The notes: generated from the letters alone by a model not told the origin. A DNA stretch of 64,000 nucleotides from Candidatus Saccharimonadales bacterium (GCA_040903985.1 JBBDUI010000002.1:454038-518037); one strand, 5' to 3'; positions 53,610-63,055 are shown, numbered from the stretch's first letter. Numbers and translations are program-made.

Positions 53610-54450
53610 TTAGCGGTTAGTAAGGCGGTCTGACTTGTGAACAGCGTAACCAACTACTGCTAGCACGAAGAATATGGCCAGTAAATTCACGGCTGTTGTC
53701 TCGTCAGTCTCTGCGGTAATGCTAGTGTCCGGTAATCCCGGTGTAGCCGATGCATCAGCAGTAGCTGTACATGTCGGCCCAGTGATGGTGTTGCTGTCTA
53801 AGGTGATTTCGGCGGTACCATCAAGTGCGCGGCCATCGAGTGTGGCACCGGTGGCGAAAGTTATGCTAGTACTAGCCAGAACGTTGCCGACAAACTCAGT
53901 ACCTGCGTCAAATGTAGCGCTGCTGACCACACGCCACCAGACGTTACACGCTTGACCGCCGCCGGTAAAGACGATGTTAGCGGTACTTCCAGTGGTCACC
54001 AAGCTGCTGGCTGATTTGAAGATCCAGACGTCGGTAGCCGCACCGTTGAGGGTAAGGGTTCCAGTAAGCTCAAAAGCATCGGCACAGTAGACACCCGCTA
54101 CCAAGTTCTCTCCGACCAAATCCTTGGTACCGGCATAGGTGGTATCACAGGTCTGTGAGCCGAGGGCAGTAAAGGCTGCACCACGGTCGGCTTGAGCAGA
54201 AAGAGCCGTGCCATTAGCATCGTGAACTGTACCGCCCAAGGTGACGCTGCCGAAACCAGTGGTATGAGGGGCTGATGCCGACATTACCACTGATAGTAGT
54301 GGGTCCGGTATTGGTGACCTCAGAGCCGGCTAGTATGGAGAAGCTAGCGGCTGTTCCGAGTCCTGGTGAAGTGGCAGCTTGGGCGACTGGGACTAGAGTA
54401 ACGAACGTTAATATTATCGAAGCGATACTGAGTTTCAAAAGAGCTTTCAT
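53610..54450 (-). pseudogene. ice-binding-like (DUF3494) surface protein with LPDTS + TM + basic tail sorting signal, split by a frameshift at a G4/C4 run near 54267-54270
   Basis: ORF 54214-54450 carries a signal peptide plus AASFSILAGSEVTNTGPTTISGNVGISP. ORF 53610-54290 continues HTTGFGSVTLGGTVHDANG... in another frame. Deleting one C from CCCC restores GNVGISPHTTGFG. The C-terminus is LPDTS...LLAIFFVLAVVGYAVHKSDR. Confidence 0.5.
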
Positions 54451-54623
54451 GTAGTATATTCATTTCTAGTATCTGCTTATGTATATTGTTAGTTTAATTC
54501 TACCTCTTTTCTGGTATTTTCTCAATTTAATTGATCGATGAATATAACAAAACAAGTAGCCCCACAGAATCAATTTCTACTAGCCAAGAGCGTAGTTAAT
54601 GGAAAGCGGGCTGAGAGGGCACT

Positions 54624-55139
54624 CTACTGCTCTTTAATGAGCTTGACTGCCGCCCTACAAGTACTATCAAGCCTATCTAGAATGGGTACATTAGGACAGT
54701 CCTGGGAGAAGCGCCTACGAATGTACCTTTCGTTACCAAAACCTTTTTCAATTCCTACTACTAGGTTAATCCCGTCTCTCTCATGCTTGAGCTTAGCCTC
54801 AGCTAGTTCAAACCTTGATGTTTGAGCGTAAGCTCTAGAAAATCCTCTCTCATCTGGATCTCCGGCTTCGGCCTGACATGCCAGCCAAAACATTACTGCG
54901 CCAGTTTTAGCTGCGCGTTTAAGGTATTCCGTCTCCCAGTCGACTTGTTTTTCGTATACAAACGTACCTTCTGGGTATTCTCTTCTCGGCGAAGCAATAG
55001 TAATCCCGGATGTAATACCACTAATGATATCAATGGCTTTCTCCTGCCAATCTTCTGCGCCTTGTATCGGTCCGGCTAGGAATAGAACGGGAGTCTCAGT
55101 ATTTACGATCTCAGGCGGTTTGATTACTTCTGTAGCCAT
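54624..55139 (-). CDS. hypothetical protein, possibly nucleoside 2-deoxyribosyltransferase-like fold (start moved to M12)
   Basis: PVLFLAGPIQGAEDW and a later T..FELAEA resemble the NDT/Rcl family G-rich loop and catalytic Glu region. Weak. Confidence 0.3.
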   Translation of the reverse strand: MATEVIKPPEIVNTETPVLFLAGPIQGAEDWQEKAIDIISGITSGITIASPRREYPEGTFVYEKQVDWETEYLKRAAKTGAVMFWLACQAEAGDPDERGFSRAYAQTSRFELAEAKLKHERDGINLVVGIEKGFGNERYIRRRFSQDCPNVPILDRLDSTCRAAVKLIKEQ

Positions 55140-55300
55140 TAAACTGAGTATAGCAAAGAGGTAGCTATACATAGATAAGATTCGGTCTAGGAACCGGGTC
55201 TTCGGTGATAAGTGTCCAACTTGGTAGACGCGATTGTATTCGAACTTTGTTCGCTAGCGGCCTAATATAGGCAATCTGCACTTAAGGGTTAGCGATAGGG

Positions 55301-55957
55301 ATGGGTCTAGAACTGTATAATAGTAGCATGATAAAAGTGTCATATGTAGAAATCAGCCAGAAAGATAAGAGCCGCATAGAGGTGGCTCTGCCAATATGGC
55401 TACAAGAGGTGAGAGAACTCCTGCCACAGGTACCTGAAGTTATAGAAGTCATCTTCGATAATCAATATCTTATCAAGATTACCGGTACGGGTGGATTTGC
55501 CTTAGATAAGGATAAGATCGCACTAGCATTTGACCCTGCTTTCACTAACAAGAATTTACAGTTCAATAATCTGCGCGGAAGCTTCTATCATGAGTGCTTC
55601 CACTTAGTACAAGGCTGGGTGGGTGGAGTAGCCGGAGGCGAGATATCGGCTATCGAGGATGCTTTAATGGAAGGTTCGGCCACTGTTTTCGAGCGGGAAC
55701 GTACAGGTACAAAGCCGCCTTGGAGCGACTATTCCGATATAAAGAATATAGATGAGAAGTTGGCTACGATTAAAGAGTTAGGAGCTAACTATGATTGGCA
55801 GAAGTGGAAGTTCTATGACCCCGAGACTAATACACGTTGGATACTGTATAAAGTAGGTGTTTACCTTACCGAGAAAATCTTGGATAATAACCCAGAATTA
55901 ACTATTGAGGATGTAGCTGGCATGAAGGTTGCGGGTATGCTTGATGCTGCCGATTGA
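55301..55957 (+). CDS. predicted Zn-dependent metallopeptidase (HExxH; DUF2268-like)
   Basis: FYHECFHLVQG contains HExxH with a downstream Glu (MEGSA). Confidence 0.4.
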   Translation: MGLELYNSSMIKVSYVEISQKDKSRIEVALPIWLQEVRELLPQVPEVIEVIFDNQYLIKITGTGGFALDKDKIALAFDPAFTNKNLQFNNLRGSFYHECFHLVQGWVGGVAGGEISAIEDALMEGSATVFERERTGTKPPWSDYSDIKNIDEKLATIKELGANYDWQKWKFYDPETNTRWILYKVGVYLTEKILDNNPELTIEDVAGMKVAGMLDAAD

Positions 55958-55983
55958 TCCATTTCTTTATGTATACTTAACCC

Positions 55984-56444
55984 ATGAATAATCTAGATGA
56001 TTACGCCGTAGATTTATACGAAAACTATGAAGCTGGAGTTCGGAAGCTGGCCGAACTAGTTGCTAACAAGAAAGTGGTCGGTGTGGGCGAATCGACGCAT
56101 GGAACTCATGAATTCTTCCAGCTCAAAGCTGATTTGTTTGTGGAGCTTCACCAAAAACAAACCTGGCTAGCTAACAACATTTATGGGAGAATTGCTTCAT
56201 GGGTCACTATGCTAGCGAAATGGATCCAAATTGGGGAGAACCGACAGCTTCTGAGAGCAAGCTCGCAGAGGTACCGGAAGAAATCAGGGAGTTGGCGCAG
56301 TGCCTTTTTAGGGGGTTTGATAGCATGGCGCATTTGGACTCAATCAATGCAGAGCACGGTATCAGAGTTGCCGCTGCCATCGATGCGCTTGTACAGAAAA
56401 GGATAGTTGAAGCTCTAGCGCAAACTACGAAAGCTCACGATTAG
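55984..56444 (+). pseudogene. short gene remnant in two frames; N-terminal part resembles the start of erythromycin-esterase-like (Ere/ChaN-type) proteins
   Basis: VVGVGESTHGTHEFF resembles the VVALGE.SH motif. The reading frame shifts near 56199, and the combined length is far shorter than family members. Confidence 0.25.
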
Positions 56445-56463
56445 AAACGTTCTCAACTGAGAC

Positions 56464-56499
56464 AAACAGAAACCACCCATCTCTGGGTGGTTTCTGTTT
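56464..56499. terminator. strong hairpin closing the minus-strand candidate defence operon (bidirectional)
   Basis: AAACAGAAACCACCCA-TCTC-TGGGTGGTTTCTGTTT, a 16-bp perfect stem between convergent genes. Confidence 0.55.
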
Positions 56500-56666
56500 A
56501 CTTGGTAGAGCAGACAGGTCTGGAACCCCCAACAGAGGTAAATGAGACAAATGAGACACCTAAAAAAGGCTTGTCTCAAAAAGTTGGCTCTTAGGTTAAA
56601 ATATAGCGTAAGAAGTTTACGTATGAAACTGACTAAAAACGATTTCAACTCACTACAATACCTAAG

Positions 56667-57338
56667 CTAGCTTACCATTGGTTCAGTTCCATTTTCTTCA
56701 ACTATTTCCATAGTGATCTCGTTTGCTACAAGATCTTTATAAAGCCACGGCCAGTCATCCAGCTTATTTTTTGTAGCTTGTTCAATTCGGTCTATTTCCT
56801 CATTGTATTTGTCTTTAAGTCTTTGGTAGTTAGTTTCTGCTCGATTGCGCAGGTCGCCGGTTTCCGCTAACCTTGGTTTTGCGTATTCCAGGTAAGACTT
56901 TTTAAAGTCTTCGTATAGAAAATCTGGGTTTATTATTACCAACTTTTTGTCAGCATATCTCACTAAATGAGTATCATCCCTGTCGCCACGCCTAGTTATG
57001 CCTACCTTACCCTTTGTTACAAAACTGTGAGCAATACCATTTCTAATCAATTCTCTTCCTATGATTCCGAAGGCCTCGTACCTCGAGTCAATATTTTTCA
57101 GATAATTCTTACAGTAGTGTTCGAAAGCAAACGAACCATTAACTTCTTGGCCTTCCTGTGGCTGGCGTAATAAGAAGCCAAGAAATTCGATACCCGAACA
57201 GAGAGCGCTTGTCATTAAATATGAAGCATTACCTGGGTGATTATCCCTAGGGATTTTGTCTTTGATAGTTTTAATGTCGCTAAGTAGATAGCCGTCAATA
57301 TATTTATCAAGAAAGCTATCAAGTATATTTATCTGCAT
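56667..57338 (-). CDS. hypothetical protein with R-x4-H (HEPN-like) motif; candidate effector
   Basis: IGRELIRNGIAHSF contains RNxxxH as in HEPN RNase active sites. Otherwise unrecognised. Confidence 0.35.
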   Translation of the reverse strand: MQINILDSFLDKYIDGYLLSDIKTIKDKIPRDNHPGNASYLMTSALCSGIEFLGFLLRQPQEGQEVNGSFAFEHYCKNYLKNIDSRYEAFGIIGRELIRNGIAHSFVTKGKVGITRRGDRDDTHLVRYADKKLVIINPDFLYEDFKKSYLEYAKPRLAETGDLRNRAETNYQRLKDKYNEEIDRIEQATKNKLDDWPWLYKDLVANEITMEIVEENGTEPMVS

Positions 57339-57354
57339 TAGCTATAAGTATAGC

Positions 57355-58548
57355 TTACAGTATAATATCTCGACCATCTTTGCCTTTGATGGGGTAGGAG
57401 CTCTTTTCTTTGTTTGTCTGGCTACTTGTTTGCTTTGATTTCAAATTCTTGCTCTTCATAACTAATTTCTTGATGTCTTCTTCGTTCTCGTAAGCCCGGA
57501 CTCTTCCGCTTAAATAGCCGAGTCTATAAGTGATGCCGTCACTAGTTAGCCGCCAGTTGGTATCATTAAGTGCTTTATTGACTAGCTTCTTCAAGGTTTT
57601 CCTGCTGTCATAGTCATCTCGGTCGTTCTTGCCGTCTAAACAGCTAAATCCAATAAAGACATCACGTCCCATTTCGGGTTTATCTAGACTAAATTCAATG
57701 TATCCGGCTTTTTCTAAGACTGGGCTTAGTATTTCGGATAGCTCCGGAATCTTTAACTTTTTGATTTGAGCCACAGCATCATAAATGTGCTTATTATCTT
57801 CTTTTTCTTTAAGTTCTTTGTCGAGTTGCACCATACCTTCTAATCTGTGCTTAGCATCGATGTGTTCTTGACGAACCTTTTCGTCCAAGAGACAGAAAGC
57901 TCTGCGGTCGTCTTCAAAATCTGGGTCTGGCTTCTCTTTTTTACGAATCAGATCCAACTTATCTTGATAACTGTGCTGACATTTAGGGCAGCTGTACTTA
58001 GTTTTGATAGCAGTTTTCAGACGAGTAGTCCTTTCTTCCATAATTGCTTTGCATTTAGGGCAGTAGGTGTGCCGGCGCTCCCATTCGGCTCCGTCTTCCC
58101 AAAAGGCACTGTTTTTATCGCAGTGCGGGCACTTGAGCATGAATAGCACTTCTTCGGGATCATCGTACTTATAGTCTTCTCCACGATTCATCAGGGTTTT
58201 ATCAATAATCCGTAGGCCTTGCTTGCCACAGTGCTGGCAATTTGGTTCAACTGATAGCCGGGAAGAACTGATTTGTAAGTCTTTTGCTTCATCTTCCGCT
58301 ATCCACTTGGCGATTGTCTCGTCACGCTTGTAGTAGCGATCAACAAGAGCGTTGCCAACCACCATCATATAGATCCAATTCAAGTGGAACGTGCTACGAA
58401 ATGAGTCTGGTTTTTCATCCGGCATGATTTTGAACCATTCATCGCGGAATTGAAGAAAGTACTTAAAGTCTCGGCGAGCAAAATCAACAGTTATCCGATC
58501 ATAGCGGTCTTCATATTCTTTAAATTTTTTAGGATGCGCATAGTCCAT
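57355..58548 (-). CDS. hypothetical protein with two predicted zinc ribbons (four CxxC pairs)
   Basis: CQHCG...CPHCD and CPKCK...CPKCQ, each pair spaced about 25 residues apart. Lys/Glu-rich, and no enzymatic motif is recognised. Confidence 0.45.
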   Translation of the reverse strand: MDYAHPKKFKEYEDRYDRITVDFARRDFKYFLQFRDEWFKIMPDEKPDSFRSTFHLNWIYMMVVGNALVDRYYKRDETIAKWIAEDEAKDLQISSSRLSVEPNCQHCGKQGLRIIDKTLMNRGEDYKYDDPEEVLFMLKCPHCDKNSAFWEDGAEWERRHTYCPKCKAIMEERTTRLKTAIKTKYSCPKCQHSYQDKLDLIRKKEKPDPDFEDDRRAFCLLDEKVRQEHIDAKHRLEGMVQLDKELKEKEDNKHIYDAVAQIKKLKIPELSEILSPVLEKAGYIEFSLDKPEMGRDVFIGFSCLDGKNDRDDYDSRKTLKKLVNKALNDTNWRLTSDGITYRLGYLSGRVRAYENEEDIKKLVMKSKNLKSKQTSSQTNKEKSSYPIKGKDGRDIIL

Positions 58549-58569
58549 TAACTTATACTAATCCTGTGA

Positions 58570-59589
58570 TTACTCTGCTTCAATGAGGGGCTTATACCAT
58601 TTTGCCAAAGCTTCAAAGCTCGCAAAAGTCTGCGGTACCGGATTGTTGGATATAAACTTGGCTTCCCAATACTGGTTCCAATACGCCTCAATTGATCGCC
58701 GAGGATGTTTGGCAATAAATGAATCATAAAAACTATCCAGTATGTCGTAATGGTGCGTATGAATAAAAGGCTCCCAGGTTTCTCGGAGTTTGTCTTGATC
58801 TGCTCCGGGCCGGTTAATAATTTCGGTTTGTTCCATCGCCCTGTCGTTGTTATCGCCCCAGCCTTTCTTTAGCAAATCAATGGCTTCTTTGTCGGTAGTG
58901 GGAGCGCTATACCCGAAAGCTGTAAATATAAAACAACCCTTAAAATAAAACCGAGCTGCCTCCCACTCACGTTTAATAAAACTATCTGACTGATAGTCTT
59001 TGTTCTCAACCGGATAGAGCAACTTGGAAGGCTTAAATGGCTTGCGACACCGACTACATGGTAGACCGGCAATACCGCTAGTGTTATGTTTCTCGCAGAA
59101 ACCTACAGTCACGTTTCCATGTAAGAAGAATAGTTTCGGGAAGCTTGTGGTAATACCAAGTTTAGCTAGCCGGATTCGGGATTGCATCAAAAATGGGTCC
59201 CAGTTGAAGGTAAAGATCGCATCTTTATCACGCAAAGACAGGTTTATGATGTCGTACAGGTTGGGCTTATCAGGTAGCTCAAGCTCCGAAAAATATTCAC
59301 GTACCAATGAATCAATACTACTTAAACTATCCGATGAGCCCAGGTTGAAGAGTTGTGAGTAAGCAGCCTCAAAATCTTGCGTAGCCAATTCTTTTAGGTT
59401 ATTAGGAAACAAGTCTACAAGTTTCAAATTTTCTGCCACATCGCGAAGTAGCGGTACCGGCCGTCCATTCCTATCGCCATTAGGTAGAGCGGCTTTGCTT
59501 GCTCCGGCACCGAGTAGAAGTATGTGTGGTTTTCCGTGGAACGGATTAGCAATTTCTTGCTGAACACTAACTTCGTTATCTGATGTCAT
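58570..59589 (-). CDS. SIR2-like domain protein (SIR2_2/DUF4020-type, defence-associated NADase-like)
   Basis: HILLLGAGASKA (GAGxS), IFTFNWDPF (compare the TTNYD motif), and FFLHGN (conserved His). 4-nt overlap with the upstream ImmA gene. Confidence 0.7.
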   Translation of the reverse strand: MTSDNEVSVQQEIANPFHGKPHILLLGAGASKAALPNGDRNGRPVPLLRDVAENLKLVDLFPNNLKELATQDFEAAYSQLFNLGSSDSLSSIDSLVREYFSELELPDKPNLYDIINLSLRDKDAIFTFNWDPFLMQSRIRLAKLGITTSFPKLFFLHGNVTVGFCEKHNTSGIAGLPCSRCRKPFKPSKLLYPVENKDYQSDSFIKREWEAARFYFKGCFIFTAFGYSAPTTDKEAIDLLKKGWGDNNDRAMEQTEIINRPGADQDKLRETWEPFIHTHHYDILDSFYDSFIAKHPRRSIEAYWNQYWEAKFISNNPVPQTFASFEALAKWYKPLIEAE

Positions 59590-60098
59590 AGCTTGTTCAA
59601 CAACCCCGTACTAGTAATGCGCCACCAAAAAGCTTCTTCACTTACCGCTAAGTGCTTAATCAAGCCAGCAGTATCGCCACGAAATTTCTTGATGTCTTCC
59701 TTTATCAAATTTAGTGGCATTATTAGTTCAGCAGCAAACGCATTAGCTTCAACTTCAGGCACCCTAGAATCATCGAAGTCAATTGAAGCTCCGGAATGGA
59801 CATGCCCCATATAGAGATGCCCGAATTCGTGTGCAACAGAAAACTTCTGCCGATTGACAGAAGTTTTTTTATTAAAGGCGATATCGATATCTTGACCGTC
59901 TTTATGTGCAATTGCGTAAACAGTACTAGGTAGTTTATCGGTTCCGTAAAATCTTATCCCAGGATGATCTTTTGTGATTACACCAACCAGATCGTTAATT
60001 TTAATTGGTGTCGCAATAATACCAGCACGCTTAATAAGTTGTCGGGCGGAGTTGTGACAACCGCTTATTCGGGCTTTGTTTTTAAATTCCTCCTCCAT
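59586..60098 (-). CDS. ImmA/IrrE-family zinc metallopeptidase (COG2856)
   Basis: HEFGHLYMGH is an HExxH motif in a protein of about 170 aa. It directly follows an XRE HTH gene. Confidence 0.75.
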   Translation of the reverse strand: MEEEFKNKARISGCHNSARQLIKRAGIIATPIKINDLVGVITKDHPGIRFYGTDKLPSTVYAIAHKDGQDIDIAFNKKTSVNRQKFSVAHEFGHLYMGHVHSGASIDFDDSRVPEVEANAFAAELIMPLNLIKEDIKKFRGDTAGLIKHLAVSEEAFWWRITSTGLLNKL

Positions 60099-60434
60099 TC
60101 ACTTTTTCCTCTGGCTTTTCATCCATTCTATATAATTCATAACACCCTTCACGTCTTCTTCGCTAAGGTCTTCATCTGCGCGAAGCGCGATACTGACATC
60201 CTTGTGCTCAGATGCAACCTCGCCATCCAGTAAATAGCCAATTGTCACCGATAACTTTCTACCAATCTCCTCTAATTCGTTGATTTGAACTCGACGTTCA
60301 CCGGATTCTATCAGCGATATAGCAGTACTAGATTTGTAGCCAACAGCTTCTGCAAGCTGTTGTTGTGTGAGTCCGACTCTAATACGAGCATCTCTTATTC
60401 GACCGCCGATTTTTTTATAGCGATTACTATCCAT
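60099..60434 (-). CDS. XRE-family helix-turn-helix transcriptional regulator
   Basis: RIRDARIRVGLTQQQLAEAVGYKSSTAISLIESGERRVQINEL is a canonical HTH_XRE. Confidence 0.8.
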   Translation of the reverse strand: MDSNRYKKIGGRIRDARIRVGLTQQQLAEAVGYKSSTAISLIESGERRVQINELEEIGRKLSVTIGYLLDGEVASEHKDVSIALRADEDLSEEDVKGVMNYIEWMKSQRKK

Positions 60435-60559
60435 GACTACCTCTTTTACGTATCTAAATGATAACTTAGGCGTGACTATTTGACAAACAATTTACGATTT
60501 TGATAAACTAATAATTACTAATAGTAAACCGCCCATTAGGGTAGCAGGAGGGATTTAAA

Positions 60560-60799
60560 ATGGCCAAGAAGAATGTCCATATTACCTACAGTAAAGACTC
60601 CAAAGACTGGGGAGTAAAAAGTCAAGGCGCGCATCGCGCTGCCAGCCGACACCAAACAAAGGCCGAAGCCACACAAGCTGGTCGTGAAATAGCCCGCAAC
60701 AACAAAGGTGAGCTTTTCATACACAATAAGGACAATAAAATATCGGACCGTGACAGTTACGGCAATGACCCGTTTCCACCGCGCGATAGAAAGCATTAG
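60560..60799 (+). CDS. DUF2188-family small protein
   Basis: VHI...DWGVK..GA.RA.S.H.TKAEA..AGREIA.N...EL.IH..D..I...DSYGNDP.PP matches DUF2188 spacing. Confidence 0.55.
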   Translation: MAKKNVHITYSKDSKDWGVKSQGAHRAASRHQTKAEATQAGREIARNNKGELFIHNKDNKISDRDSYGNDPFPPRDRKH

Positions 60800-60811
60800 G
60801 AGGCAGCTATT

Positions 60812-61729
60812 ATGCTCATCATAAAAAAGAGATGGATTCGTTCACTAAACAATAACCTACCCGGCGACCTTAGAGGTGGTGTCGTTAATATCGCTGTTAA
60901 GCTTGAATCTAACGAAAATGTTGCTCAAAAAATTGGCTTCGGGAAGAATCCGAAGATTGGTGACACACTCACACCTAAGCCGGTCGGTCCAGCCACTCGT
61001 TTTAACGCTCATGGTAGAGAAAAAATCTTACGAAACCGAGAAAAAGAGAAACTATATCGCACCCAAGAATGGACACGCGAGGAGTGGGCGGGTCGTGGCC
61101 AGACACGAACGGTAACTTCACTAGTGGATATTCCATATTACCGTTATCCTCGTGAGCACATTGATGGTTTTGATTTAGAGCTAACTATCAGAGAGTTTAA
61201 CGGACAGAAGCACATAGTATTAACTGAAGGTATTCGCTGGGATGACGGCAGCACAGAGAAGCTGATAACTGCCATCAATATCTTTTTAGAGGTGTTTGGA
61301 CAGGCAGAAATTCTAAATGAATCTCTAGAAGAAATCCCAAGTCCGGCTGAAATTCGCCGACTTAACTGGATTGTGCTTCCTAAGGGCGAAAAAATTACGC
61401 AAGAATCGTTGGATGAAATCTTGTCGAAGTCTAGACGCATTCGACCAGTACAAATGCTACGCCAGGAGCGCATTAGTTCATTTAATCCCGACATCCGTGC
61501 CATCGGCATGGGCGGCTTCACTGGCTATGTTGTCTATGTCTTCAAAAAGAAAGGAATCGCGGTCATGGAGAGTGTTAAGTATGGTAACGCCAGCTACATT
61601 ATCGCAGCCGACAATTGGGAGAAACTCTCCAAGATGACAAAACAGCAACTTCTGTCAAAAAGCCTAGTGCAGTCGCGTGAAACTCACACTAAAAAATGGT
61701 TTGCCCGCATCAAAAAGCTACTGGCTTAG
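60812..61729 (+). CDS. hypothetical protein (305 aa)
   Basis: ORF. No recognisable motif. Confidence 0.4.
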   Translation: MLIIKKRWIRSLNNNLPGDLRGGVVNIAVKLESNENVAQKIGFGKNPKIGDTLTPKPVGPATRFNAHGREKILRNREKEKLYRTQEWTREEWAGRGQTRTVTSLVDIPYYRYPREHIDGFDLELTIREFNGQKHIVLTEGIRWDDGSTEKLITAINIFLEVFGQAEILNESLEEIPSPAEIRRLNWIVLPKGEKITQESLDEILSKSRRIRPVQMLRQERISSFNPDIRAIGMGGFTGYVVYVFKKKGIAVMESVKYGNASYIIAADNWEKLSKMTKQQLLSKSLVQSRETHTKKWFARIKKLLA

Positions 61730-61923
61730 CGATTGGCGATGATATACTAAAATTACAATTCAACCTTAGGGAGAGGTACTCCCTGCGGACTCTCTGAGTT
61801 CCAGTGCGCCATATATCGCGAGATAAGCACTTACGCCCGCTGCGTGCAAGAAGCAGTAGACGTAAGTGCATTTTTAATTCTTGCGATGGAGGCACTATGT
61901 CTACAGAGATACAAAACATAATA

Positions 61924-62796
61924 CTAAACTAGGTCTCTGAAAAAGTTAATAATACTCTTCGTGTTCGACCACGCAAGACTGTAGTCAATAGCAAGAAGAC
62001 CAGCGACAGCTATCAAGGCACCAAATAAGCTCTTCACCTTGTGGTTTTCCATGAACCTGTAAATTTTCTTAGTACCAGTGGCAACAAGCCAAAAAGGGTT
62101 TGTGTAATGCCAGACATTCACGTCATTCTTTGTAATGTTTCGAGGTTGATTCTTTTGTAACTCTGCGAGCTTGATAAGCTCGTTAGCTGATTTTAGGTTT
62201 AATTCGATTGCTTTTCCAAATCCTTGACACTCTATATGCGGTGGAACTTGCATGCCTTGATATATAGCTTTTGAATCCCGCGATACGACCTGGCTAGGCG
62301 AACGCGCTTTTATATAGTCACCGATTGAAAAATCCACGTCTATATCATCAATTTTTTTCTTTAAAACATCATTACCAATAACTAACTCTAGTTGGATTTT
62401 CAGGTTACGCATTAACTCCTTCAAGGCTTCTAATTTATCGTTGGCCTCGTCAATGTCGAACCTTTTTGATGCATTACTTATGATATGTTGCCACATTTCA
62501 TCAAGAGTTTTTGTCTGCCAACCAGGATCGTAGCCGTCATTGAACACCCCAGCGCCACCCCATTCCGGATCAAACATCTGGCTTGTATTCGGGACTTCAT
62601 ATTCTTTGAAGTATAAATTCGCATGATAACCAGCCCAGGATCCAGACCAAGATTCATGGAGTCGATTGCATGTCTTTATTGTGTCTTTCGATACCATCGC
62701 TAAATACTCTTTCTCGCTTTGGAGAAAGTCTCTCAAGTTATCTAGTGCCGCATCGAGGCCCTGATTAGTTTTAGCTTTTTGAAATAAACTCTTCAT
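61924..62796 (-). CDS. hypothetical protein with C-terminal TM helix (start moved to MKSLFQ)
   Basis: ORF. Soluble N-terminal domain of about 260 aa, then SLFGALIAVAGLLAIDYSLAW. Confidence 0.4.
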   Translation of the reverse strand: MKSLFQKAKTNQGLDAALDNLRDFLQSEKEYLAMVSKDTIKTCNRLHESWSGSWAGYHANLYFKEYEVPNTSQMFDPEWGGAGVFNDGYDPGWQTKTLDEMWQHIISNASKRFDIDEANDKLEALKELMRNLKIQLELVIGNDVLKKKIDDIDVDFSIGDYIKARSPSQVVSRDSKAIYQGMQVPPHIECQGFGKAIELNLKSANELIKLAELQKNQPRNITKNDVNVWHYTNPFWLVATGTKKIYRFMENHKVKSLFGALIAVAGLLAIDYSLAWSNTKSIINFFRDLV

Positions 62797-62980
62797 ACAA
62801 TAAATATAACAGAGAAACAAACAAGATCTTACAACGATCACGGAACCCGGTCAGAAAATTTATCGTCCAGTCGCTATAGAAGGACAGGTCATACAGGGGT
62901 TAGCGTAAAAATTACAGATGTGCTTATAAAGCAACAAGACCAGGTCATGGAACCCGGTCTTGATCAGATTGTGTACTACT

Positions 62981-63055
62981 TGGTAGCGGGGGCAGGATTC
63001 GAACCTGCGACCTCCGGGTTATGAGCCCGACGAGCTGCCACTGCTCTACCCCGCG
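62981..63055 (-). tRNA. tRNA-Met (CAU) with initiator-like features
   Basis: Reverse complement is CGCGGGGTAGAGC...GGGCTCATAACCCGG...GGTTCGAATCC...CCCCGCTACCA. It has an unpaired 1:72 (C.U) pair and three consecutive G:C pairs at the anticodon-stem/loop junction. Confidence 0.75.

Follow-up and report, generated by a model that had tools for sequence, protein, structure and literature searches.

A mosaic of separable modules around a divergent SIR2-fold gene and an ImmR/ImmA-type switch in a Candidatus Saccharimonadales genome

This study concerns a cluster of five genes, all on the minus strand, in a stretch of 64,000 nucleotides (nt) of DNA (GCA_040903985.1 JBBDUI010000002.1:454038-518037; hereafter the window, positions being counted from its first letter) from a metagenome-assembled Candidatus Saccharimonadales genome. 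A preliminary description of the cluster, made from the sequence alone, had read it as a single operon and a candidate regulated defence system, encoding an XRE-type helix-turn-helix (HTH) protein, an ImmA/IrrE-type peptidase, a SIR2-like protein, a zinc-ribbon protein and a protein with an R-x4-H motif, and closed by a perfect hairpin. Open reading frame (ORF) calling recovered all five genes and the junctions described for them: the XRE stop codon directly abuts the start of the peptidase gene (0 nt), the peptidase and SIR2 genes overlap by 4 nt, and gaps of 21 nt and 16 nt precede the last two genes. Two of the encoded proteins have entries of 100% identity in a metagenome-assembled genome of Candidatus Saccharimonadales. 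Our analysis leads to a different view of the whole: the cluster is a mosaic whose modules are separable, and it does not make up one five-part system. The interpretation that we favour, with modest confidence, is that of a SIR2 defence cassette whose expression is linked to a switch of the ImmR/ImmA type; the zinc-ribbon protein would be an optional partner in it and the fifth gene an independent passenger. The features of the cluster, with protein lengths in amino acids (aa), are as follows.

60099-60434, minus strand: XRE/ImmR-type HTH repressor, 111 aa (HTH_3 and capH matches)
59586-60098, minus strand: short ImmA-type zinc metallopeptidase, 170 aa (Peptidase_M78 and capP matches)
58570-59589, minus strand: divergent SIR2-superfamily protein, 339 aa (AlphaFold model, Foldseek and invariant motifs)
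57355-58548, minus strand: zinc-ribbon protein, 397 aa (four invariant CxxC motifs and a predicted model)
56667-57338, minus strand: R-x4-H protein, 223 aa (invariant R99-N-G-x-x-H104)
56464-56479 and 56484-56499, both strands: perfect 16-bp inverted repeat with a 4-nt loop (repeat search)

The proteins of the cluster were scanned against Pfam, PADLOC (2.0), NCBIfam, PHROGs and PDB sequences. The 339-aa protein had no match in any of these collections (E up to 0.1 in Pfam), and a family-profile search of PDB sequences with its family found no sirtuin. A word-indexed search retrieved 4,432 homologues (clusters at 90% identity, E <= 1e-3), the best 120 of which are 57-89% identical and about 340 aa long; none of these 120 carries a precomputed Pfam domain and all are unannotated. 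An AlphaFold model built from 50 homologues (predicted local distance difference test score, pLDDT, 89.2; predicted template modelling score, pTM, 0.89) consists of a single SIR2 domain with a short extension. When this model was compared with the PDB by Foldseek, the 19 matches at E <= 1e-3, including Sir2-Af1 (1.3e-6), SIRT6, Sir2Tm, SIRT1, ThsA and Avs5, were all SIR2 proteins, the next match lying at E 0.11; their template modelling (TM) scores were modest (0.31-0.47), and the protein is therefore a very divergent member of the superfamily. The preliminary description had named structure prediction as a way in which its SIR2 assignment might be refuted, and it is the model that upholds the assignment, whereas the matches to Pfam SIR2_2 and PADLOC that were to be sought did not appear. 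The GAGxS, TxNxD and HG hallmarks that it had pointed out are also genuine: GAGAS begins at residue 27, TFNWD at 127 and LHGN at 156, and G27-A-G-A-S, N129, D131, H157 and G158 are invariant in the 50 homologues (57-87% identity). Beyond the catalytic histidine, a cluster of cysteines, C165 (nearly invariant), C178 and C181 (both invariant), lies at the position of the sirtuin zinc module, and the C-terminal extension has an invariant HPRR motif. On this combination of predicted fold and motifs, the protein is likely to be an NAD+-consuming effector.

In a scan of about 185,000 species genomes, one genome per species, the SIR2 family was found in 574, belonging to Saccharibacteria, other groups of the candidate phyla radiation (CPR), Chloroflexota, Proteobacteria, Bacteroidota and archaea. 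Such a patchy distribution, at 45-89% identity across bacteria and archaea, suggests horizontal transfer. We called ORFs in the best 80 of the 574 loci, the SIR2 ORF being recovered in 77, and clustered the neighbouring genes; the flanks proved extremely heterogeneous, and the gene is mostly solo. In other phyla the products of the genes immediately next to it include HmaC (6e-224), a methyl-directed restriction enzyme of type IV, a type IIG restriction-modification enzyme, a Mokosh-like helicase, mad3/mad8-like ATPases and proteins with Mrr, TIR and AbiC domains. Membership of the methylation-associated defence system (MADS) was considered and rejected, because the mad3/mad8 matches are to ABC-type ATPase domains and occur in only one or two loci. 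Plasmid copies carry only a hypothetical annotation. In Legionella pLPL the gene has umuDC on one side and a type I-F CRISPR-Cas locus on the other; a Vibrio plasmid has it beside SLATT, mobile mystery protein and McrBC genes, and on a Stenotrophomonas plasmid it is alone. Sixteen IMG/VR contigs carry relatives, and none was found in deposited phage genomes. Taken together, these surroundings are those of a defence-island gene that is largely self-contained and moves horizontally. It is accordingly hard to see the 339-aa protein as an ordinary regulatory sirtuin, for instance a protein deacylase for host physiology with an incidental position in an island: the best Foldseek E-values do belong to true sirtuins (Sir2-Af1 and SIRT6) and the three cysteines sit where the sirtuin zinc module would be, but the patchy occurrence, the defence-gene neighbours, the copies on plasmids and viral contigs and the lack of any Pfam SIR2 match make this explanation highly improbable.

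The strongest argument that the SIR2 gene is regulated comes from its relatives. In the closest relatives from Saccharibacteria (loci L008, L010, L011 and L021), a Peptidase_S24 protein of 213-226 aa is encoded directly upstream of SIR2, at gaps of 1-22 nt, and the same arrangement is seen on the contig of the best metagenomic match (P0001, locus L169), where the ORF is cut by the contig end. The S24 protein matches LexA in the PDB (4e-7), the match being offset as it would be with a DNA-binding domain at the N terminus. In a further locus (L149) it is an HTH-Panacea protein that stands directly upstream. Seven CPR loci thus retain a regulator directly before SIR2 while its type varies and, since three unrelated types occupy the same slot, expression of SIR2 would seem to need restraint, as would be the case for a toxic effector.

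The regulator found in the window is of the two-protein type. As the preliminary description had proposed, the first two genes encode an HTH protein and a COG2856/M78 metallopeptidase: the former matches Pfam HTH_3 (3.6e-10) and PADLOC capH (4.2e-11, over residues 4-107), the latter matches Pfam Peptidase_M78 (1.9e-14) and PADLOC capP (3.1e-19), has an HEFGH motif at residue 90 and matches IrrE weakly (0.0046), and capH and capP are the best PADLOC matches of the pair. The alignment to capP covers profile positions 7-136 of 242 only. CapP itself is made up of a peptidase domain (residues 1-141), an HTH linker (142-182) and a GAF domain (182-288) that forms part of a groove binding single-stranded DNA; the protein in the window consists of the peptidase domain only. 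Its length of 170 aa and the partial alignment therefore identify it as a short peptidase of the ImmA type, not as a true CapP. According to the paper that defined CapH and CapP, such pairs are always found on the opposite strand from the operon that they regulate, upstream of it, and operons with DUF2188 are among those associated with them. The pair in the window is of the ImmR/ImmA and CapH/CapP type that had been invoked for the cluster; the SIR2 genes lie downstream of it on the same strand.

An exact direct repeat of 17 nt, AATTTCTTGATGTCTTC, was noticed at 57464-57480 in the zinc-ribbon gene and at 59683-59699 in the peptidase gene. On the minus strand each copy is read as the peptide EDIKK; such a repeat is not expected by chance in 10 kb, and its meaning is not obvious.

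What does lie on the opposite strand is a unit that the preliminary description left out, and with which the XRE gene shares a control region of 125 bp:

60560-60799, plus strand: DUF2188 gene, PADLOC candidate PDC-S16 (Pfam DUF2188 1.5e-20; PDC-S16 4.4e-30)
60812-61729, plus strand: hypothetical gene of 305 aa, 12 nt after DUF2188 (ORF call)
60458-60486, minus strand: promoter-like site TTGTCA-17-TATCAT upstream of the XRE gene, a consensus match only (10/12)
60480-60509, plus strand: promoter-like site back-to-back with the former, a consensus match only

The number of promoter-like sites in this region is not above that expected from shuffled sequence. The 305-aa gene is probably the second gene of the divergent unit; its product has no family or PDB match and the gene is not conserved in related loci. 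DUF2188, in contrast, recurs: it is divergent from S24 or Panacea regulators in four loci (L003, L008, L010 and L093) and from an ImmA homologue with an adjacent small gene in a fifth (L094), and L007 has it upstream of SIR2. This pattern looks like a conserved genetic switch made of a regulator and DUF2188, with the genes downstream of the regulator as variable cargo. Since the published pairs control the opposite strand, DUF2188 operons included, the DUF2188 unit is no less probable as a target of regulation than the SIR2 genes.

This raises a real, if minority, possibility, namely that the XRE/ImmA switch acts on the DUF2188 and 305-aa genes and that the SIR2, zinc-ribbon and 223-aa genes are independent cargo, expressed along with the repressor in the manner of rexAB and lambda cI, without any induction when the repressor is cleaved. 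The invariable opposite-strand layout of CapH/CapP-like pairs, with DUF2188 operons among their named targets, speaks for such an uncoupled arrangement, as do the divergent position of DUF2188 in the window and in the five relatives just mentioned whatever lies downstream of the regulator, the ParB-methylase and terminase-like genes found beside these switches in relatives, the solo occurrence of SIR2 in most genomes and the fact that the zinc-ribbon gene follows many unrelated genes. Three observations pull the other way. The junctions of 0-21 nt and the 4-nt overlap leave no room for separate promoters, so that control of the XRE promoter would also be control of SIR2; seven CPR loci retain a regulator directly before SIR2 despite the change of regulator type; and adjacency of SIR2 and the zinc-ribbon gene recurs across phyla.

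The zinc-ribbon protein of 397 aa has 579 homologues (word-indexed search), 56-84% identical among the matches listed. Its four CxxC motifs, at residues 104, 140, 163 and 187, are invariant in these homologues, as is a C-terminal TNWRL...YRLGYL motif. The predicted model (pLDDT 82.9, pTM 0.55) has three bundled helices (residues 9-95), followed by a zinc-ribbon region rich in beta structure (about 100-200), a linker of long helices (211-260) and a C-terminal alpha/beta domain (267-366) of ferredoxin-like form; it contains no recognisable enzyme fold, and the Pfam, PADLOC, NCBIfam, PHROGs and PDB sequence searches returned only generic zinc-finger similarities for the ribbon region. The preliminary description had set the three downstream proteins together, and for this pair the association does recur: the zinc-ribbon gene adjoins SIR2 in 5/77 loci of the genome scan and in one from the metagenome scan (L149). 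In L008, L010, L011 and L149 it immediately follows SIR2, and in L085 it is convergent with SIR2 and one gene away; in a gammaproteobacterium (L017; 29% identity, E 2e-35) it comes immediately before SIR2, with an overlap of 8 nt. The retention of adjacency across phyla with the order reversed is good evidence of a functional link. That link is facultative, as SIR2 is without the zinc-ribbon gene in 72/77 loci and, among the 43 zinc-ribbon loci from metagenomes that extend at least 1.2 kb upstream, SIR2 is upstream in one and absent from 42.

Other genes take the place of SIR2 in these loci. The zinc-ribbon gene directly follows an S24 repressor in L089, L090, L113 and L129 and an HTH-Panacea protein in L003. 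In L098 (2400-6130) an S24 repressor is followed by the two genes of a type I cyclic oligonucleotide-based antiphage signalling system (CBASS), encoding a CD-NTase (SMODS and AGS_C) and SLATT_4, and then by the zinc-ribbon homologue; in L096 (1439-4473) the same CBASS pair precedes the zinc-ribbon homologue without S24, and an XRE homologue is divergent in the canonical CapH-type layout. L116 has S24 and a 403-aa protein with a sub-threshold match to HEPN_Cthe2314 (E 4.8e-5) upstream of the zinc-ribbon gene. Further loci place it after exonuclease VII genes (L102 and L156), ftsK (L121) or a DUF2130 gene (L101 and L123). We favour, only mildly, the interpretation of the zinc-ribbon protein as a promiscuous partner of different effector cassettes, the alternative being a constant gene bordering a cargo hotspot. 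A phage origin of the gene was considered and dropped, since there were no matches in IMG/VR and none on plasmids for the proteobacterial version.

Many zinc-ribbon loci are beside ParB-methylase genes and some beside terminase-like genes. More generally, ParB-N6/N4 methylase genes, often with a partner of about 140 aa, lie a few genes from the regulator, SIR2 and zinc-ribbon cassettes (L003, L007, L008, L021, L094, L108, L110, L114, L143, L151, L156 and L161), and are joined by terminase-like genes in L003 and L007. Their recurrence suggests a mobile element or prophage of Saccharibacteria with a variable cargo hotspot.

The fifth gene behaves differently. Its 223-aa product belongs to a family with 18 homologues by word-indexed search and 704 representative clusters by exhaustive profile search (393 at E <= 1e-10), all of about 220-260 aa. 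The R-x4-H motif reported for it is real and conserved: it reads R99-N-G-I-A-H104, with R99, N100, G101 and H104 invariant in the 18 close homologues and R99, G101 and H104 at least 90% conserved in 150 remote ones. The 223-aa protein itself had no significant match in Pfam, PADLOC, NCBIfam, PHROGs or PDB sequences. The suggested kinship with HEPN RNases found no support by a transitive route through the family enlarged to 704 clusters, as none of the 150 members scanned matched a HEPN model, or any other Pfam family, at E <= 0.01, and PDB profile searches gave nothing relevant. In five other contexts the gene stands alone in defence-type surroundings, with a STAND NTPase, an AAA_21/RloB pair, and a KAP NTPase or QatB as neighbours; SIR2 or the zinc-ribbon gene was beside it in none of the five, and the family was absent from 80 SIR2 and 80 zinc-ribbon loci. 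Locus L172 (2436-5286) has a close group of three same-strand genes, each of 241 aa, and one of these is a member of the family (P0250); they may be tandem paralogues, as would be typical of fast-evolving defence genes. The 223-aa gene is probably co-transcribed with its neighbours in the window and is an independent, stand-alone gene elsewhere.

These distributions bear directly on the earlier proposal of one obligate five-component defence system in which the SIR2, zinc-ribbon and R-x4-H proteins act together. Co-orientation, tight spacing and a single terminal hairpin are what such a system would present, and all three downstream families do occur in defence-island contexts. Against it, the 223-aa family keeps company with neither of the other two, no other SIR2 locus examined has the XRE/ImmA pair, the sizes of the three families (4,432, 579 and 18 by the word-indexed search) are orders of magnitude apart, and spacing of this kind is common in the genome of the window. 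We regard an obligate five-gene system as distinctly unlikely, and the three-protein effector combination, of which the SIR2 and zinc-ribbon half recurs, did not survive comparison with other loci.

Packing is a poor guide here. Same-strand gaps in the window have a median of 33 nt, with 47% no longer than 25 nt, and about 89% of this genome is coding; tight spacing being ordinary, the close packing of the five genes suggests their co-transcription and is weak evidence of functional coupling. The hairpin lies where the preliminary description placed it, at the end of the cluster, 168 nt past the final stop codon, where two transcription units converge, with plus-strand ORFs on its far side. 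Whichever strand is read, a GC-rich core is followed by a T-rich stretch, and the structure is likely to be a bidirectional terminator between the two units.

The genes lie in a region in which the GC content falls from about 0.51 to about 0.43 (roughly 55-63 kb of the window):

54600-63055, no strand: low-GC island, delimited by GC content and ending at tRNA-Met
62981-63055, minus strand: tRNA-Met gene at the end of the island

Low GC and the adjoining tRNA gene together mark the cluster as part of an island gained by horizontal transfer. A search across 53-63 kb for further copies of the end of tRNA-Met gave only short imperfect matches, and in the absence of a convincing attachment-site repeat the borders are set by GC content alone. 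ORF and Pfam scans found no integrase, relaxase, conjugation or phage (including structural) genes in the island. At its low-GC edge, within 54624-55957, are a nucleoside 2-deoxyribosyltransferase-like gene (PF15891, 2.2e-7) and a gene for a predicted zinc protease (DUF2268, 3.5e-8). On the plus strand at 55984-56444, ORFs of 140 aa and 81 aa overlap in different frames, and the former weakly matches (E 0.013) the N-terminal part of Bacillus proteins of about 450 aa, which we take to be erythromycin-esterase-like; the pair is probably the remnant of a truncated or frameshifted gene. On the minus strand at 53610-54450, a 78-aa ORF with a signal-peptide-like start overlaps, in another frame, the 5' end of a 226-aa ORF rich in Thr, Gly and Ala, and the two may represent a single gene for a secreted protein with a frameshift or a mis-called start.

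A low-GC island beside a tRNA gene, and the plasmid copies of the SIR2 family, would also suit a toxin-antitoxin or addiction module that stabilizes a mobile element, its toxin being the SIR2 protein, the zinc-ribbon protein or both and its upstream regulator acting as the check or antitoxin. The HTH-Panacea proteins directly before the zinc-ribbon gene in L003 and before SIR2 and the zinc-ribbon gene in L149 fit that explanation. XRE/ImmA and LexA-like regulators are, on the other hand, transcriptional switches and not stoichiometric antitoxins, and most members of the SIR2 family have no adjacent small partner; we consider an addiction module unlikely, with the qualification that toxin-antitoxin and defence roles are not mutually exclusive.

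We return to the interpretation that we favour, that of a regulated SIR2 cassette tied to the ImmR/ImmA-type switch, with the XRE and peptidase genes probably co-transcribed with SIR2. Several of the results above weigh against it. The XRE/ImmA pair was next to SIR2 in none of the 80 other loci; the SIR2 match is structural only (TM 0.31-0.47, no hidden Markov model match); the zinc-ribbon gene is far commoner without SIR2, and its neighbours include the housekeeping genes xseAB and ftsK; and tight gene spacing is ordinary in this genome. As regards the switch, the signal that activates the peptidase cannot be inferred from CapP because the GAF domain is absent and, given that published CapH/CapP pairs control the opposite strand, induction of SIR2 on cleavage is not what precedent provides; the alternative is that the SIR2 genes are co-expressed with the repressor itself.

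Our current working model allows for both directions of control. The XRE repressor would bind the shared 125-bp control region until a stress signal, most likely DNA damage or infection, led the peptidase to cleave it, and transcription from the region would then change, whether towards SIR2, towards the divergent DUF2188 gene or in both directions. With its NAD-binding loop and catalytic Asn, Asp and His retained, the SIR2 enzyme would consume NAD+ or ADP-ribosylate a target, so that growth stops and the invader is blocked. We infer for the zinc-ribbon protein the role of a facultative sensor, adaptor or oligomerizing scaffold that would also serve other effector cassettes, and the 223-aa gene would be a separate, stand-alone defence-island gene that has by chance come to lie at the end of the same transcript.

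A bolder version of this model can be formulated, which we regard as speculative and rather improbable. In it, the zinc-ribbon protein would be a downstream sensor or adaptor shared within the CPR and combined with interchangeable effectors (SIR2, the CD-NTase and SLATT CBASS pair, the weakly HEPN-like protein, or nothing) and with interchangeable cleavable regulators (XRE/ImmA, LexA-like S24 or HTH-Panacea), and the small SIR2 protein would be a new stand-alone NAD+-depleting effector. If true, this would amount to a previously undescribed combinatorial defence chassis, with a SIR2 effector that extends across bacteria and archaea. Effectors of the SIR2 type that deplete NAD+, and the control of immune genes by cleavable repressors, with damage-responsive repressor/peptidase switches among them, are already known; what is new is a large and highly conserved family of small SIR2-fold proteins reaching from Saccharibacteria to Legionella plasmids and archaea, the swapping of their regulators and the recurrent zinc-ribbon protein. 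Current defence-system censuses miss the SIR2 family, because no Pfam, NCBIfam or PADLOC 2.0 model detects it. Regulator swapping and the zinc-ribbon protein also offer handles on how episymbionts with tiny genomes organize and restrain toxic immunity genes and, should the 339-aa protein prove to be an NADase, it would be among the smallest self-contained SIR2 defence proteins and a minimal model for how such enzymes are kept off.

It remains to compare the cluster with systems already described. A literature search for a named system of SIR2, ImmA and zinc-ribbon proteins, or for SIR2 in Saccharibacteria, found nothing relevant. The preliminary description had not recognized the cluster as Thoeris, as a defence-associated sirtuin (DSR) system, as SIR2-HerA or as the short prokaryotic Argonaute system with sirtuin (SPARSA), and we concur, for there is no PADLOC match to these systems and their defining partner domains are absent: a ThsB TIR protein with SLOG, a sensor of about 1000 aa, HerA, a short prokaryotic Argonaute (pAgo) and a STAND NTPase were found in 0/10 genes at 54.6-62.8 kb (Pfam and PADLOC). 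With ThsA, DSR1/DSR2, SIR2-HerA, SPARSA and Avs5 the 339-aa protein has in common the SIR2 Rossmann fold, the GAGxS loop, the catalytic Asn, Asp and His and a defence-island neighbourhood. It differs from them in being a single-domain protein without SLOG, sensor, STAND, HerA, pAgo or TIR partner, and in its cysteine cluster at the zinc-module position and its HPRR extension.

The PanAT systems offer a second comparison. The HTH-Panacea proteins directly before the zinc-ribbon homologue (L003) and before SIR2 and the zinc-ribbon gene (L149) resemble them, whereas the window has no Panacea domain. In the paper describing PanAT, Panacea is an antitoxin domain that pairs with many toxins, and neither SIR2 nor zinc-ribbon toxins are mentioned.

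Three kinds of regulatory locus also resemble the cluster. Like ImmR/ImmA and CapH/CapP, it has an XRE-type HTH repressor beside an M78 (HExxH) zinc peptidase. Its DUF2188 gene is on the opposite strand, as in published CapH/CapP-like loci, and the DUF2188 and 305-aa unit (60560-61729) would fit the place of the regulated operon, the SIR2 genes lying downstream on the same strand as the pair; the 170-aa peptidase departs from CapP in its missing HTH linker and GAF domain. In gene order and sizes the pair fits the short, co-directional ImmR/ImmA of ICEBs1 and prophages, although the island has no integrase or conjugation genes, and the peptidase is of the same size as ImmA of ICEBs1. The third parallel is with lambda cI-rexAB. 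The cluster differs from lambda in the lack of phage structural genes in its island and in having a two-protein XRE and ImmA switch in place of a single self-cleaving repressor; in the nearest relatives a self-cleaving, LexA-like repressor stands immediately before SIR2, whether or not the zinc-ribbon gene is also present, and DUF2188 occupies the divergent position that cro holds in lambda.

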